64,000 nucleotides of DNA. It comes from Eledone cirrhosa. Its lineage: Eukaryota. The notes beneath the pieces are model-generated. The model did not search any database and was not told the origin of the DNA. It was given only the letters and a program-made list of their open reading frames with translations. The stretch covers positions 408,332,001 through 408,396,000 of the forward strand of contig OZ024740.1 in NCBI GenBank assembly GCA_964016885.1. The letters are read 5' to 3'. Each line of letters starts with the position of its first letter. The stretch's first letter is position 1. Of the stretch, positions 6,442-50,167 are shown piece after piece. Both the position numbers and the translations under genes were made by a program.

Positions 6442-6797
6442 AAAGTTTAAGCAAAGAATCGCTGCTTTCAACATTAACGGGATCTTCTGAAGCTAAAAAA
6501 TTCAATCTGTGATCGCAGAATTAAATATTTCGAGAAACGTTGCAACGAAGGAAAACAGGAAGACGATATTTTGGTTCATGAAGACCTTCCCTGGTAATGA
6601 ACAGAAAAAAAGCGAAGATAATACGTCGTTATGTGGACCGAGAAAAACAATTTCATGCAGAGACAAGACCAAGTTTATGGTGTAAATGGAGTCGTTAAAC
6701 TAATATTCTATTTAAAATAACCGAATGATTTCCAGCCCCGGAGTTTAAGAATGATGTAAATAAAATTGTAAACGAAAATGACAGAGGTTATTAAAAT
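6442..6797 (-). mobile_element. Diverged PLE family A pLTR fragment with hammerhead remnant
   Basis: Aligns by eye to 10700-11175 (AAAGTTTAAGCAAAGAATCGCTGCTTTCA...ACAGAGGT). Has only one copy of the internal ~140-bp unit. Confidence 0.85.
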
Positions 6798-8705: not shown

Positions 8706-8816
8706 ACAGTCTAACAATTGTTTCCATGATAGAGTTGTCTATAAATTGCTAAACACTGAAGACAGCATAATTCAATTTAAAATACATATAACTTCAATTA
8801 TTTCATCAGAAACTAT
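8706..8816 (-). ncRNA. Type I hammerhead ribozyme, long stem II (sense copy)
   Basis: Reverse complement of the motif at 10272-10382: CUGAUGA...GAAACAAUUGUU. Confidence 0.7.
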
Positions 8817-10271
8817 TAAGAAATACAAAATACATGCGCAACGGTAAACTTAAAAATTAAAACTACTACATTAATAATAGTATTAATGATAAAGAAATAA
8901 AGGAAGGGTGACATATGGAAAAGAGAGAGAAAAGAAGAAGATGAAGAAAGAGAGGACGAAGATATAGTTAAATGTATAACCGGCAAATTTACGAAATCAA
9001 ACTATCACATCAAAATAAATAAATATAATATTAATAATAAAGATACAGATAGAAAGACAGAAGGGGGTGGGGGGGGGGGTAGTAAAGGCATAGAAGAAGG
9101 ATTAATAAGGAAGAAAAGAAAGAGATAGAGGAAGATTAAGAGGGAGGAATGAGGCAGGGAGGGATAAAAGTTAATGATAAATACGGGATATGAAAGAGAG
9201 AAAAAGAAAATAAACAGACGGACAAATATACATTATTGGAGGGATGAAAACAAATAAGAGATAGAGATTTAAGCATAGAGATAAATTAATAAATAAATAA
9301 ATAAATAATTGCATAAATAAGATGAAATGATAGATAAATAAATAAATAAATAGATAGGTGAAAAAATAAACAATTTACATCTATTGTTATATAAAATAGT
9401 ATATGTGAAACGCAGAGATGAAAATAAATAAATAAATAAATAAATAATAAATAAATAAATAAATGAATAATAATAAATAAATAATTGGATATTTAAATAA
9501 GTAAATTAGCTAGTTTGAGATGTATTACATGATAGGAGAAAATGATCGAGATGAAATAGGTTTAAGTAGAGAAATGTAAAGACAAATGGTGAAAGATGTA
9601 GGTGTATAAATAAGATAATAAATGATGTAAATACAAATAAAATGAAAATAATGATGTAAATACAAATGTTCTGAAGTTGTTCATTCGGAATTATAAAGTG
9701 TGTGATAATCTGATATCTTAATAGGTACTAAAGGTATTAAAAAGGAATAAGGAGTAGAAGATGGAGTTAAGTTGGTCTAAAGTTCAGGAATTTCATTACT
9801 GATTTATGCCAGCAAAAGATAGTTCGTTCAAATCTACTGTTAAGAAGGGTTTTACTAAAATTAAGAATTTGGAAGAGCTCCATATTACAGAGCCTACAAT
9901 GGGACATACCAGTTTGATAGGCCTTAGCTTTGACAGTATTGTCCAACTGATCTCATATTCAATGCCTGCATTCCTGAGTTGCCATATTTTGTTGGCAAGA
10001 GTTGTTTTATTTGATTGATTCTTATTAATCATAGAATGTCTGTGCACGTACCACCGTTTTTTTAAAACACCAGCTGTGGAACCAATGTGATACCATGCCA
10101 AGCTACCTGAGTTGATAGTACACAAGTATAATACGTTTTTCTCCAGGCATCTGTTTAGTAGAGGGCATTTGTCAGGTAAGTGGCAGTTGCATAGAAATGC
10201 TTTCCTATGCGCCGGTTCTACTATATGATTTTGAAGATTGTTATGTATGGGCTGCGAATTAGGTTTGTTGA

Positions 10272-10382
10272 ATAGTTTCTGATGAAATGATTGGAGTTAT
10301 ATGTATTTTAAATTGAATTATGCTGTCTTCAGTGTTTAGCCATTTATAGACAACTCTATCATGGAAACAATTGTTAGACTGT
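10272..10382 (+). ncRNA. Type I hammerhead ribozyme, long stem II (inverted-arm copy)
   Basis: ATAGTTT-CTGATGA(10279)-[78 nt closing as ATGATtGGAGTT/AACTCTATCAT]-GAAA(10364)-CAATTG-T-T-AGACTGT. Stem I is 7 bp with two G.U pairs. Confidence 0.72.
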
Positions 10383-10691: not shown

Positions 10692-10767
10692 ACAGATTAA
10701 AGTTTAAGCAAAGAATCGCTGCTTTCACCATTAACGGGATCTTCTGAAACTAACAAAGTCAATCTGT
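10692..10767 (-). ncRNA. Variant hammerhead (U4A), family A
   Basis: Same fold as 46892-46967, with one substitution in stem II. Confidence 0.65.
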
Positions 10768-11926: not shown

Positions 11927-12002
11927 ACAGATTGACTTTGTTAGTTTCAGAAGATCCCGTTAAGGGTGAAAACAGCGATTCTTTGCTTAAACTTTAATCT
12001 GT
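11927..12002 (+). ncRNA. Variant hammerhead (U4A), family A inverted-arm copy
   Basis: ACAGATTGA..AGTTT-CAGAAGA-TCCCGTTAAGGGT-GAAA-aCAGCGATTCTTTGC-TT-AAACT-TTAATCTGT. Position 15.2 is mutated G>A. Confidence 0.6.
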
Positions 12003-12049: not shown

Positions 12050-12136
12050 ACAGGGAGAAAAAGACGATTATTAGGAAGAAAAAAAAAATTTTTTTTTCCC
12101 TTTTTTATTTCTTTCTCTCTTATATATATATAATGG

Positions 12137-12473
12137 AGGCACATGGCTTAGTGGTTAGAGCATTGGCCTTGCAATCGAAAGATTGTGAGTTCAATTCTCA
12201 GACCGAGTGATGTGTTGTTTCCTTGAGCAAGACACTTTATTTCACATTGCTCCAGTTTACTCAGCTGTAGAAATGAGATGATAGGGACTGGTGTCCCTAT
12301 CATTCCACTGCAAAGTGGTCGTGGAGGTGACACGGCAAAAAAGCACCCAACACTCACTGTAAATGAGGTTGGTGTTAGGAAGGGCATCCAGCTGTAGAAA
12401 TCAAGCCAGAATCAGTTCCCGTCCCACCCTTGCAAGCAGGGAAAAGCGGACGTAAAATGATGATGATGATGAT
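12137..12473 (+). mobile_element. tRNA-derived SINE family A, full length, RTE-2-type tail
   Basis: A box TGGCTTAGTGG, B box GAGTTCAATTC, CCTTGAGCAAGACACTT core. The last ~45 nt are identical to the end of RTE-2 at 8596-8644. Confidence 0.88.
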
Positions 12474-26579: not shown

Positions 26580-26967
26580 TCATCATCATCATCACCGTTT
26601 TACATCCGTTCTTCCACGCTACCATGGGTTAGACGGGTTGTCCTGTTGTGGGCAGTGTCCGGTCGGCTGACCTTGTCTTGCTCATACGGGAACTGATTCT
26701 GGCTTGATTTCTACAGCTGGATGCCCTTCCTAACACCAACCTCATTTACAGTGAGTGCTGGGTGCCTTTTTTGCCGTGGCACCTCCTCGACCACTTTGCA
26801 GTGGAATGATAGGGAACCCAGTCCCTATCATCTCATTTCTACAGCTGAGTAAACTGGAGCAATGTGAAATAAAGTGTCTTGCTCAAGGGAACAACACATC
26901 ACCCGGTCAGAGAATTGAACTCACAACCTTTCAATTGCAAGCCCAATGCTCTAATTACTAAGCCATG
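26580..26967 (-). mobile_element. SINE family A with RTE-1-type tail
   Basis: Body is the reverse complement of 12140-12422. The tail is CCCGTCTAACCCATGGTAGCGTGGAAG..(GAT)n. Confidence 0.85.
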
Positions 26968-27389
26968 CTATTTCATAGGATAAAAACCCATAAGAAAAAA
27001 ACCCTTATGAAAAAGGCAGAAACAAAATAAAAGAAACATAAAAAAAAAGAAAAAGATGAAAAAATTACTGGGAAAATTATTCAGATAAATGCTTTGAATA
27101 TTCGAAAATGATATTGGGTTTGAGTGGAAACTGAAGGGATTCATTATTTTCATGTATTTAGTACACCTGGGTGACCCTGTTAGTGTGGATGTGTGATTTA
27201 TTCATATTTTCTTGTGAGGGGAGATAGAAGCATATAACAAAGTGGAAAACGTTATAAGCCTTGTGAATATATGATTATTTAAAGTTTGATAATATTTGTA
27301 GTGAAGGTCAGAAGGCAGTAAATTGATATAATATAGAAAATATGAGGACATCTTATGTTAATGTTAACGTTATCAAGCAGTCACTAATA

Positions 27390-35439: not shown

Positions 35440-36118
35440 GTAGTAATCAATACAAAGAGTTTTATATGTATATAATCCGGTAGAATATTTATGTATTATT
35501 AGATTAAAAGTTTAAGCAAACAATTTCTGCTTTCACCCTAAAGCATTATCTTCTGAACCTGTACACAAATGCAAATATTTTGAAAAAATTACGACCAAAT
35601 ATTGTTTTTAAAAAATAGTAAGACAACAGTAATGCACTGGGGTCAATTTAATTGATCTTCTCCTCCCCCCAAAATGTTGGCCTTGTGTCTAAATCAGAAG
35701 CCATTATTACTATTATTAATATTGCTGGCGTTTTTACGCATATTATTAATTCCTTCATTATCTTTATGTTTAATCACATTACTTCTATTAATATCATTTT
35801 CCATATATGGCAGCTGGAAATTATTCTATTCTAAAATGAATAGTCTCCTGATTTCTTCATAGCAGGAGTTTCTTCTTCCCACTTCACTTAATGACGTAAT
35901 TGGATATTTTATTCTCCTTGCATACATTTCTCTGTATCTCAAGAGAACATCTTCATGTGTTATCATAATGTCTCTTTATTTGTTAAAGGTAATATGTAGT
36001 CATAATTTTTTTTTAAATACTTACATCTGCGTCCACAGATTGATATTTCTCAGTTTCAGACGATCGTGCTTTAGGGTGAAAGCAGAAATTATTTGCTTAA
36101 ACTTTTAATCTATACTAA
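35440..36118 (-). mobile_element. PLE family A-related remnant with inverted arms
   Basis: 35501-35560 and 36052-36111 are reverse complements and homologous to the family A hammerhead region. Confidence 0.7.
36037..36111 (+). ncRNA. Variant hammerhead (U4A), diverged subfamily
   Basis: AGATTGA-tatttctc-AGTTT-CAGACGA-TCGTGCTTTAGGGT-GAAA-GCAGAAATTATTTGC-TT-AAACT-TTTAATCT. Confidence 0.62.
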
Positions 36119-37800: not shown

Positions 37801-38417
37801 TACAACACTAATTATGGGATCTACAATGTTTAACAACAATATAACTAGAGAACTAATCCACTTACTCAACCTGTGTTTCATACATTGATAGATATAGAAA
37901 ATAGTTTGTAAATAGACACCATATCCTGCCATGTCATAAGAGCCAACTATGAAAGTTGGCATCAGGAAAGGCATCTGGCTATAGAGCACTGCCTCAAAAA
38001 GTTCTGTTCAGCCCATACCAACATGGGAAAGCAGATATTAAAACAATGTTGATGCTGATGATGTTCATCATTATCTATTGCTGTTTTGAAGAAGAAAATC
38101 ATAGCTATGGAATTCTAACTTGTGCAATATAAATAATTGATTTTACTTAACCTTTTCTTTACTATACTTCTAATGAAATCATTTTGAAAGTAATTAAGCA
38201 TTTGAAGGGTGTTTAAAACAAAACTTAATAAAGGATTTTACATAGAATATGATGGAAAGAATCAGCTATATGGAATGAGTAGGCTCTCAGAAAAGTTTAG
38301 TTTCAGAATGCACGGCCCTCTTTCAGCTTTGTATATTTTTTTCTTCTGTAAAATCAGTTCTATTGAAGTTAGAAATCAAATTTGTAATTACTTAAAAGGA
38401 TACCCAGCTTTAATGAA

Positions 38418-38585
38418 GGCACATGGCTTAGTGGTTAGAGCATTGGGCTTGCAATTGAAAGGTTGTGAGTTCAATTCTCGGACCGGGTGATGTGTTGTTT
38501 CCTTGAGCAAGACACTTTATTTCACGTTGTTCCAGTTTATTCAGCTGTAGAAATGAGATGATAGGACTGGGGTCCCTCTCATTAA
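38418..38585 (+). mobile_element. SINE family A, 5' half
   Basis: Matches 12137-12304. Confidence 0.82.
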
Positions 38586-43522: not shown

Positions 43523-43932
43523 ATATTAGAATATAAATATTAATAAAATAGATGTTCTTTTGATCAATTATATTTTATTATACTTATTTTGGATGTACAA
43601 CAGTACGTCCTCATCAGACAAAATATAATTATACATGACATACCCTGAGATGTTAAATGGTTAAGATTTAATCAAGGTAGTACCTTGATTAAATCTTACT
43701 ACCTTGATTAAATCTTAACCATTTAACATCTCAGGGTATGTCATGTAACATTATATTTTGTCTGATGAGGACGTACTGTTGTACATCCGAAATATGTATA
43801 ATAAAATGTAATTGATCAAAAGAACATCTATTTTATTAATATTTATATTCTAATATTAATAACTCCGGAAAATTATTTTTCGTAGAATGCTTCCAATCTA
43901 CTGTAAAACTCATTTTTTGATATACTCATTGA
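43523..43932 (+). mobile_element. Miniature fold-back PLE family D insertion
   Basis: Arms 43523-43681 and 43698-43856 are near-perfect reverse complements, followed by a ~75-nt tail. (TA)-rich flanks. Confidence 0.85.
43750..43812 (+). ncRNA. Type I hammerhead ribozyme (family D), canonical core
   Basis: ATTATATTTTGT-CTGATGA-GGACGTAC-TGTT-GTACATCC-GAAA-TATGTA-T-A-ATAAAATGTAAT. 12-bp stem I, AUA triplet. Confidence 0.88.
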
Positions 43933-44000: not shown

Positions 44001-44073
44001 TTATTAAATAACAGATTAAAGTTTAAGCAAAGAATCGCTGCCTTCACCCTTAACAGGATCTTATTATTATTAC
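43998..44073 (+). mobile_element. Ultra-short PLE family A insertion
   Basis: Inverted arm (matches 10680-10743) fused to TTATTATTATTACTA, the reverse complement of the family A terminus at 10596-10611. Confidence 0.75.
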
Positions 44074-46054: not shown

Positions 46055-46404
46055 TATGTATACATATATATGTGATGTGATCTTTTCTAGCTACTTACGC
46101 TCAGAGAGTGGGATTGGCTCAGTGCACAGGCATTGCATGATATCATTAATTGATAATTATTAATAATGTTATATCGTGCAATGGCCATACTCGATAACGA
46201 GGGGGCAGCCATCATATATATATGTATGTGTGTGTGTATATATATATATGTGTATATATATATGTGTGTGTGTATATATATATATGTGTGTGTATATATA
46301 TATGTATGTGTATATATATATGTATATGTGTATATATATATATATATACATATATGTATATATATGTATGTATATATATGTATATATATATGGAGGCACA
46401 TCGA

Positions 46405-46728
46405 GGCACATGGCTTAGTGGTTAGAGCATTGGCCTTGCAATCGAAAGGTTGTGAGTTCAATTGTAAGACCGGGTGATGTGTTGTTTCCTTGAGCAAGAC
46501 ACTTTATTTCACATTGCTCCAGTTTACTCAGCTGTAGAAATGAGATGATAGGGACTGCAAAGTGGTCGTGGAGGTGCCACGGCAAAAAAGCACCCAGCAC
46601 TCACTGTAAATGAGGTTGGTGTTAGGAAGGGCATCCAGCTGTAGAAATCAAGCCAGAATCAGTTCCCGTCCCACCCTTGCAAGCAGGGAAAAAGTGGACG
46701 TAAAATGAAATGATGAAATGATGATGAT
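46405..46728 (+). mobile_element. SINE family A with RTE-2-type tail
   Basis: Matches 12137-12473 with a ~20-bp internal deletion. Confidence 0.88.
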
Positions 46729-46891
46729 ATATATGTATATATATTTATCTATCTATTTCTCTCTATATATATATATATATATAAATATATAGTAATAATA
46801 ATAAAATTGAAGACTAAAATCCAAAGAGGGCTCGATAAGGAAAATATATATCAAATATATAAGAACCGTAGAGCAAATATTTATTAAAATA

Positions 46892-46967
46892 ACAGATTAA
46901 AGTTTAAGCAAAGAATCGCTGCTTTCACCCTTAACGGGATCTTCTGAAACTAACAAAGTCAATCTGT
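46892..46967 (-). ncRNA. Variant hammerhead (U4A, U10.1.U11.1, CUU), best-preserved copy
   Basis: ACAGATTGA-ctttgtt-AGTTT-CAGAAGA-TCCCGTTAAGGGT-GAAA-GCAGCGATTCTTTGC-T-T-AAACT-TTAATCTGT. Confidence 0.7.
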
Positions 46968-47875
46968 AAACGCAGAACTGGATATTTCAAAAAACGTTGC
47001 AACCGGAGGAAGACAGGAAGACGATACTTTGGTTCGTGGTAACGTTCACTGACAAAGAACGGGAAAAAACGAATAATACGTCATTAATAGGAGCGGTGAA
47101 AAACAATTACGCGCAAAGACAGAACCACGTTTATGGTATAAAAGAGGTCGTAGACTAATGTTCTCTTAGGTGGTGCATAGAGACGTTCTCTGGCAATGAA
47201 CGAAAAAACGAAGATAATAAGTCATATGTGGAGCGTGGAGAACAATAGCACGCAAAGACAAAATCACGTAAATGGTAAGCAGAAGTCGTAGACTAAAATT
47301 CTAACTAGGAGACCAAATGAATCTCCGCTACAGAGTTAAGAACAAAGTAAATAAATACAATACAGAAGTAATAGAAACAAATAAATACATACACGCAAAC
47401 AGATACGTACATACACAAGCATACGCAAAACCTTACCATAGGTATACAAAACCACGCACATATAAATATGTGTTTATGTATGCTTATGTACAAATAAATA
47501 AATAATTATATAAACGTATATAAATAAATAAATACATATATAACAAACGCACATGCATACCTACATATAAATACACGAATGTTCGGAGACGTAAGTCAAC
47601 TAAAACAAGAAGTACACATATACACACACCCACTATACGTACGAACCTGCATACTCACGCAGACGCAAAACTCCCGTATACACATAGCCAAACCCTAAAT
47701 ACCAGAATATGTAAAAATGATACGCCATAACAGTCAAATATACGTACGAGAAGGTATACATACCTTCACAAAACATACGGGTAATATATACTTACCTATG
47801 CAAATAAGTAAAGGAATAAACAAACATATACTTAGCTCCCACATCAAGACGTAAAATATCCACGTATAGATCGTG

Positions 47876-48842
47876 CTATCCGTTAGGGTATAACGTGGGG
47901 CTGTAATACAGGAAAGTTTTGTGCAATTTATGTTTACAAGCCGAAATTGCCTCAGATTTTTTGTTTAAGATGTGGTCTGTGGCGTAGAGTATTTCCAGGG
48001 CCTCGGCGGCGCAGAGGTCACATGGTCTTTTATTTCCGTTATACGATCTAGCCCGAGCTAGGATCTCCCAGTGTAACTTATATTGGGTGTGGTTGTCTTT
48101 TAGACTCCAGATATAAGCTGAAAGTGACGTCATATTCCTTCTTAGAGGGTAACGAAAAGAATGGGTATGCATGTAAAGACGCTGCTTGAAACTATTGGCG
48201 GTTAACCCTATGTAGGCCCTACGGGACGTGGGTGTTACAACCTTACATTTGTAGACAATGTTACTAGAGAGGCATTTCCCAGATAGGGGGCAATCAGCCC
48301 GATTCCTACAATTACAGTTAGTACTAACTACAGGGTTGCACGTGTTCCTACGGCTAGGTAGTTTAGCTAAATTTGAAGCTGAGATGTTATGTGCATGGTT
48401 AGGAGTCATAGAGTAAGAAATTTTAATAGTATTTCTATTAAAAATTTTACTATATTTATGTGTAGGGGGAAAATGCTTCATAATAAGGGAAAGAAAGATC
48501 TTAGCTAATGGTGTGGCCACCTCCGTATTATATGGTGGGTTAAACCAACAAATGCGACGGTATCTATTTCTTCTAGGTCTATTTTCGTACTCAGTATATG
48601 CTACCTTATCGACAAATCCACTTCGAGCAAGAGCTTCATTGTAATAAGTGGAATGGTCGTTGAAAATGCGCTCGTTGGTGGAAAGACGGGAAAGCCTCAA
48701 CGAAACGTTTCTTACCAGGTTCTTGGTTATGCTGGCAGGATGGTTGGAATGCTTACTTATGTAATTAAGTGTATCATTCGGCTTTCTATACGGGTAATAC
48801 AACCCATTCAATAAATTGAGGGTAACGTCGAGGTAATTAACG
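47876..48842 (-). CDS. 5'-truncated PLE ORF: RT C-terminus/thumb + Cys-rich linker + GIY-YIG endonuclease (Naiad-like)
   Basis: VNYLDVTLNL..YRKPND..SNHP..WFNPPY..CNCRNRADCPLSGKC..IVY..YIGLT..FKQR..H..CDLC..LNKKSE..CKH. No stops in >310 codons. Confidence 0.9.
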
Positions 48843-48879
48843 GATTCTTTGCTTAAACTTTAATCTGTTATTTTAATAA

Positions 48880-48910
<31 letters not shown>

Positions 48911-49069: not shown

Positions 49070-49483
49070 AATATTGGAAAATGTGTGAGATCCTTGGTAC
49101 AGTTAGGTATATTTGAAAAAAAAGGAAAAGAATTACTTCATTTGTAGTGTTAAATAATTTGATTTAATTTTATAATATTATATTATGAGTTGGTAGATCT
49201 AGTAAGTTCTTTGTTAACTTCGGGGGAAGAATTTTAAAGATTCCTGGTCAACTTTGTTGGATAACTTTCTCGCATCCGTTGGTGGCGATTGTCAAACTAA
49301 GATCAGGTTGTGTTGAGATGTGACTATATATAGGAGAGATTGGATGTGTCTGCGGTGTAGGGTGTGGAGTTAATGAGTGTTGATAATGATGAAGATTTGG
49401 AGGAATTAAAGCATACATACACACACACGCACACACACACATACACATACACACTCAGAAAATGGTGAGGTTGCAAGAAAATA

Positions 49484-49893
49484 CTATTGTATTTTCACAG
49501 TAAAGGCTTTACCTCACATAATATCTCACATAACATTTACATTACTCTATATATACTATTGTATTGTCATAGTAAAGGCTTTACTTTACATAATATCTCA
49601 CATAACATTTACATTACTCTATATATACTATTGTATTTTCACAGTAAAGGCTTTACCTCACATAATATCTCACATAACATTTACATTACTCTATATATAC
49701 TATTGTATTGTCATAGTAAAGGCTTTACTTTACATAATATCTCACATAACATTTACATTACTCTATATATACTATTGTATTGTCATAGTAAAGGCTTTAC
49801 CTCACAAAATATCTCACATAACATTTACATTACTCTATATATACTATTGTATTGTCACAGTAAAGGCTTTACTTTACATAATTATCTCACATA
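49484..49893. repeat. 72-bp minisatellite, ~5.7 units
   Basis: Unit TTGTATT(T/G)TCA(C/T)AGTAAAGGCTTTAC...CTCTATATATACTA. Seen as a 24-aa period in the ORF track. Confidence 0.95.
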
Positions 49894-50167
49894 ATATAGA
49901 ACCTATTAGATTTTGATATTATTTATTTTGATAACAATACCTTAACATCAGTATGAGCAGCCAGTTACAGCCAGTTTTAACAGAAAGAAGTGAGAGAATT
50001 CTGGCCGGTTTAAATTAAATGTTAAAGGGTTAAGTGAAGAAAGGCTTTGCACACTTGACCAATCCCACTCTCTGAATAACGGTGATAGGTATCCAAAATG
50101 AAGTACAGGTCAACATTATTGGCTGTCATCGAGTTACAGGACTTACATCAGAGTTTTCCTTCTAGAA

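Follow-up and report, generated by a model that had tools for sequence, protein, structure and literature searches.

The question raised by positions 46892-46967 of this stretch of Eledone cirrhosa DNA (the window, meaning the whole 64,000 nt analysed, from a genome assembly of 3.0 Gb) is whether a hammerhead-shaped motif in which core position 4 is fixed as A still works as a self-cleaving ribozyme in the retrotransposon that carries it. Positions within the motif follow the usual hammerhead numbering, and cleavage is expected after an NUH triplet. Published work is cited below for the accessible parts of each source.

Architecture of the motif and its host element

On the minus strand, sequence complementarity and a descriptor place the motif in the type I register, with the following parts.

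46892..46967, minus strand: hammerhead-shaped motif in the type I register
46947..46967, minus strand: 5' arms, i.e. distal helix (46967-46959), bulge (46958-46952) and stem I (46951-46947)
46940..46946, minus strand: core positions 3-9, CAGAAGA, with A4 at 46945
46927..46939, minus strand: U10.1 (46939), stem II of 3 bp with a 5-nt loop, and U11.1 (46927)
46906..46926, minus strand: G12-A13-A14-A15.1, stem III with a 7-nt loop, U16.1 (46907) and U17 (46906)
46892..46905, minus strand: 3' arms, i.e. stem I (46905-46901) and distal helix (46900-46892)

Read 5' to 3' from 46967 to 46892, a 9-bp distal helix, a 7-nt bulge and a 5-bp stem I lead into CAGAAGA, a U and stem II (CCC/GGG), followed by a second U, GAAA, a 4-bp stem III (GCAG/UUGC), UU and the 3' arms; the predicted cut is the 46906/46905 junction. 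Three stems surround the core with stem I open-ended, as in type I hammerheads, and 94% of cells are paired across 35 copies. G12, A13 and A14, the A15.1-U16.1 pair and an H at position 17 are all present. As the sequence-only reading had noticed, the core departs from CUGANGA by the A at 46945, and its other six positions conform. The R10.1-Y11.1 pair is replaced by U.U, a tolerated natural variant (PMC3088659). Because U4 and the 10.1-11.1 pair are both missing, the motif is not classed as a canonical hammerhead but as a hammerhead-derived variant that is likely slow-working.

The same reading had the motif fold "exactly" into this register. The type I register does fit the minus strand, but the best RNAfold fold differs from it, and the register, drawn by hand, lies 2.1 kcal/mol higher (z = -0.63). 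Stem I has a pairing probability of 0.07 in the 46892 copy, within a range of 0.01-0.17 for the motif, compared with a mean of 0.40 and a median of 0.18 in 45 canonical controls. The expectation that CUGANGA searches would pass over the motif was borne out, the core reading CAGANGA. The Rfam hammerhead models did not match it either; a natural U4 copy and the four canonical motifs in the window were likewise unmatched (0/4 of the latter recovered at E up to 1).

The motif lies in a Penelope-like element (PLE) insertion composed as follows.

46780..47875, minus strand: 3' UTR and pLTR with tail, (TA)n at the end
47876..48859, minus strand: open frame with a 5'-truncated PLE ORF, i.e. RT thumb, CxCx5C linker and C-terminal GIY-YIG-type endonuclease
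48843..48883, plus strand: inverted, 5'-truncated pLTR piece capping the insertion

It is on the sense strand of the element, in the 3' pLTR, ~930 nt downstream of the truncated ORF. The 47876..48859 frame is ~98% identical to intact 713-aa frames elsewhere in the genome, and a protein search returned 65,566 candidates, the 150 scored being 97-100% identical and several having 713-aa open frames. Pfam gave no informative match for the host ORF. By eye, the 713-aa frames at 10 loci carry RWR, DKT, YRDD, CNC-x5-C, CDLC (CxxC), CKH (CxH) and a GIY-YIG-type domain, i.e. a single RT ORF with a C-terminal GIY-YIG and the RWK-like, DKT, CxCx5C, CxxC and CxH motifs of the Hydra clade. They agree with the diagnostic features that Craig et al. 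2021 give for the Hydra clade, and the proteins are similar by eye (PMC8557442). The pLTRs are partly tandem or inverted, with a tail and insertion into (TA)n, as in Hydra-clade hosts. Judged by sequence, the motif is thus a homologue of the pLTR hammerhead in a Hydra-clade PLE. Six of the 9 full-length copies have a tandem pLTR upstream, and in them the start codon follows the predicted cut at a distance of 157-159 nt. Three of the nine start at nearly one site, which lies ~25-30 nt ahead of the start codon and does not coincide with the predicted cut; this shared start is possibly the transcription start.

Copies, subfamilies and the base at position 4

Besides the copy at 46892, the window holds the following relatives.

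6442..6510, minus strand: subfamily A2 copy, A4, stem II broken (subfamily-wide)
10692..10767, minus strand: family copy, A4, stem II mismatch
11927..12002, plus strand: family copy, A4, stem III change, inverted partner of the 10692 copy
35501..35560, minus strand: old subfamily B copy, A4, decayed, without stem II
36035..36111, plus strand: old subfamily B copy, A4 (CAGACGA), stem II broken
44006..44062, minus strand: partial copy starting inside the core, without position 4

As reported from the letters alone, A4 is present in all six named copies (6443, 10692, 11927, 35501, 36037 and 46892), among which every stem is intact only in the 46892 copy. Since 10692 and 11927 are an inverted pair of one insertion and 35501 and 36037 are probably another, these six represent ~four insertions.

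Genome-wide, a 30-letter pattern with positions 4 and 7 left free gave 19,810 exact matches versus 0 for the reversed pattern; the motif is not a chance match. With stem I included, 13,593 of 13,711 exact matches have A4 and 118 do not. By our own count, the first 100 of these 118 listed carry 39 G, 36 T and 25 C, which puts U4 at ~0.3%, the level of random mutation. A4 also stands in 99 of the first 100 listed of 4,569 matches to the older subfamily A-old (T in none listed), in 87/88 copies of the oldest subfamily B, and, among 39 matches in an unanchored sample of 1.064 Mb, in all 26 that cover position 4. Extrapolation from this sample gives on the order of 100,000 full or partial copies. 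The proposal that A4 is inherited and not post-insertion decay therefore holds, and a genome-wide U4 consensus is excluded by the dominance of A4 in A-young, A-old, B and unanchored copies. ORF DNA identity to the young family, decay included, is 83-95% beside A-old-type copies and 74-83% beside B copies.

A type I descriptor with position 4 free found 65 motifs in the 1.064 Mb (reversed control, 0), of which 53 from many families have U4, 11, all from the lineage under study, have A4, and 1 has C4. As U4 occurs in many families and A4 is confined to one lineage, A4 appears to be derived and lineage-specific, and we infer that U4 changed to A once, in the ancestor of the sampled subfamilies.

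A hidden U4 subfamily was considered and rejected. The 198 U4 matches genome-wide are sporadic or at junctions; about half of 30 U4 loci read have non-element or fold-back sequence upstream, and at 5 U4 loci a second copy at the same locus has A. False U4 arises at inversion centres because TTCAGAA reads TTCTGAA on the opposite strand. Fold-back junctions recur at this near-palindrome in the core, giving apparently canonical U4 copies, and many truncated copies start in or beside the core. Contigs of 4 runs held no variant of at least 5% at 46939-46946, two of the runs being one contig each and thus uninformative on other species, and a metagenome pattern scan gave 0 matches to the motif. A conserved switch, in which A4 would pair with U11.1 and sequester the core, was also rejected, the mean pairing probability being 0.32 in A-young and 0.25 in A-old versus 0.01 in B and 0.03 in A2; as modelled, this pairing may hinder assays.

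Canonical type I hammerheads abound in the genome (the 53 motifs above), and four lie in the window.

39725, plus strand: canonical type I hammerhead
43761, plus strand: canonical type I hammerhead
~33247, minus strand: canonical type I hammerhead
~60789, minus strand: canonical type I hammerhead

A second Hydra-type PLE family (family C) carries a hammerhead with a canonical core and a loop 2 of ~70 nt (window 8720-8815, minus strand; ORF 9796-10296, minus strand); we ruled out that it is degenerate, the long loop 2 accompanying a canonical motif. C4 is found in 7/31 of its copies (6 loci) and needs 4 changes on the family tree, a pattern suggestive of U4C master copies whose signal CpG decay has blurred. 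Other repeats in the window include a 160-nt inverted repeat (43523-43856; 97%, 14-nt spacer) overlapping a canonical hammerhead motif, a tandem repeat of ~six copies of a 72-nt unit (49409-49954), and short dispersed repeats at 12133-12445, 26766-26976, 38413-38576 and 46400-46692, which are probably SINEs; weak tRNA-like matches lie at 12144 and 38424.

Constraint, insertion ends and the probable role of the motif

We aligned 271 copies, of which 166 spanning the motif fall into four groups, 21 spanning copies are unclassified and the rest are too short; the subfamily sets are partly anchored on motif patterns. Columns were tallied from the subfamily alignment. Among A-young, A-old and B, the majority letter differs in 0/56 core and stem columns, compared with 7/20 loop, bulge and position-7 columns (Fisher p 4e-5) and 22/114 flank columns (Fisher p 1e-4). 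The bulge and loop 2 differ among subfamilies, and position 7, the variable core position of hammerheads (PMC2837043), is divided between A and T in B. Taken alone, the 14 unpaired core columns gave no significant subfamily test (p 0.13).

To lessen the anchoring bias, we turned to 30 B copies and scored their unanchored 3' halves, in which departure from the column majority is lowest in the core (5.7%), followed by stems (11%), flanks (20-22%) and loops (28%). In the 17 of these 30 copies that reach far upstream, A/T columns depart by 2.0% in the 3' core and 2.7% in core plus stems, versus 14% upstream (p 0.007 and 1e-4, respectively) and 19% in loops; C/G columns in the same 17 copies gave p 0.11. 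The covariation support that had been proposed as a check did not appear: 1/22 pairs changed on both sides, with no excess over shuffles, in stems that have too little change.

These tallies bear on the hitchhiking reading, in which a dead hammerhead, itself unconstrained, was carried along by master copies that succeeded. The young family is ~98% identical at the protein level, so most A4 copies count as one event, and the core-only test is not significant. However, hitchhiking does not predict 0/56 structured columns differing against 7/20 in loops and 22/114 in flanks, and the lineage covers ORF DNA identities of ~74-98%, decay included. We consider this reading improbable.

Where the motif sits in the element, on its sense strand, is established, as is A4 in all sampled subfamilies; core and stems do not change among A-young, A-old and B, while loops, flanks and position 7 vary. 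The explanation we prefer, with about an even chance of being correct, is a slowed, putatively self-cleaving ribozyme with A4 fixed in the pLTR of a Hydra-clade PLE. We infer a reduced, non-zero rate and a role in freeing a unit-length or circular template. With A4, a weaker U-turn and a much lower rate are predicted, and most transcripts would remain uncut across the site, 29 nt upstream of the commonest insertion 3' end. The cut after CUU, which in tandem copies precedes the ORF start by 157-159 nt, would be made now and then and free the unit-length or circular template, often enough for the other core residues to stay under selection.

Consistent with slowed cleavage, the motif shares position and architecture with the Hydra-clade hammerheads in print, among which U.U and often U17 also occur; the core and stems (0/56) are set apart from the flanks (22/114), with the free position 7 splitting in B; and another change at position 4 is seen in family C, whose C4 accounts for 7/31 copies in this genome. 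A viroid U4C hammerhead is weak in vitro yet sufficient in vivo (PMC3088659). Against slowed cleavage, single mutants of the CUGA turn are all low in activity, with no rescue by a second change but C3G/G8C (Roberts et al. 2023, PMC9901934), and hammerhead-dead mutants of an Anolis PLE insert normally in vitro (Frangieh et al. 2024, PMC11167929). The amplification of A2 with a broken stem II, the lack of covariation, the weakly predicted stem I and the insertion ends also count against it: the predicted cut is the start of 0/104 unanchored copies.

Of these 104 copies, 47 end 29 nt past the predicted cut, which is the commonest 3' end, maps to 46877 and is presumed to be where reverse transcription starts. 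No DNA footprint of cleavage was found in the 104, a set without a canonical family as control. Continuity across the cut site does not separate the readings, since it would also result from a religated circle. Subfamily A2 (window example, 6442-6764) carries two changes that break stem II and counts 202 exact dispersed copies, where by our own estimate independent double mutation would predict well under one. ORF DNA was found within 1.5 kb at 0/14 true A2 loci, so A2 may be non-autonomous.

These ends suit another reading, tentative but possible, in which the motif does not cleave and its fold and sequence are kept as a putative binding site for the RT/endonuclease next to the start of reverse transcription. 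The 47/104 ends lie just beyond the motif, the stems are conserved in sequence without covariation as protein recognition would predict, and A2 amplified despite its broken stem II. U-turn mutants are weak (PMC9901934), and cleavage is dispensable in vitro in another PLE (PMC11167929). Recognition by protein does not, however, account for the conserved unpaired letters being exactly the catalytic ones, with position 7 being what varies.

At the other extreme, the variant could be fully active, with U.U, contacts of the bulge or loops, or the element's protein predicted to compensate for A4. A4 is retained across all subfamilies with no reverted subfamily, and tertiary contacts have been proposed to offset core variants (PMC3088659). 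Set against this, a pairwise scan gave no second-site rescue, in a different hammerhead (PMC9901934), stem II has just 3 bp and stem I is weak, and full activity is very unlikely. It is likewise unlikely, if less markedly so, that a natural A4 hammerhead, predicted to be rescued by RNA context or the element's protein, cleaves at a useful rate in this highly successful young retrotransposon.

Comparison with known hammerheads

Cleavage proved dispensable for insertion in the one in vitro test (PMC11167929), which leaves the retention of hammerheads by PLEs to be explained. A family that has lately been very successful, and in which a core position that hardly ever varies carries a fixed change, offers a natural test case. 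If the A4 motif cleaves, search descriptors and the hammerhead consensus ask for too much; if it does so at a useful rate, the core would widen to CNGANGA, and such variants could be hidden in PLEs now counted as having no hammerhead. If it does not cleave, a PLE multiplied to tens of thousands of copies with a non-cleaving hammerhead fold preserved, a sign of a second function.

Of the features first singled out as unusual, U.U at 10.1-11.1 and U17 turned out to be ordinary in Hydra-clade hammerheads (PMC8557442; for U.U also PMC3088659), while U4A was not found in print in the accessible parts of the literature. No report of a natural U4A hammerhead was found there, though some survey figures, datasets or supplements could still list one. 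U4A goes unnamed in the accessible text of Perreault et al. 2011 (PMC3088659) and is absent from the accessible parts of 10.64898/2026.07.22.740005 (bioRxiv), PMC11014351, PMC6765202, PMC13725137, PMC6155905 and PMC3376415.

The closest relatives are the Hydra-clade type I hammerheads (Craig et al. 2021, PMC8557442 File S2), which share the sense strand, the place near the element 3' end, the short stem II, often CUGANGA-U...U-GAAA, the U at the cleavage site, the (TA)n targets and the ORF motifs. They have U4 in every motif tabulated in the accessible part, whereas the Eledone motif has A4; in the Hydra rows stem III begins with C and has a loop of 1-3 nt, whereas the Eledone motif has G15.2-C16.2 and a non-palindromic 7-nt loop 3. 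The minimal and variant PLE hammerheads (Cervera & De la Pena 2014, PMC4209133) share the pLTR location, variant cores and low expected activity, but their core variant is a compensated U3-A8 pair, in contrast to an uncompensated change at position 4, and their metazoan forms lack helix III and are active as dimers, whereas the Eledone motif has a 4-bp stem III. The PAc (Anolis Poseidon) hammerhead (PMC11167929) also belongs to a PLE, with reverse-transcription starts and tail downstream and no ends at the cut; it has a canonical core, its cleavage has been shown, and it comes from a different clade. The viroid U4C variant (cited in Perreault et al. 2011, PMC3088659) shares the changed position, but there a pyrimidine replaces a pyrimidine, whereas the Eledone motif has a purine, and this is fixed in a retrotransposon family numbering tens of thousands of copies.
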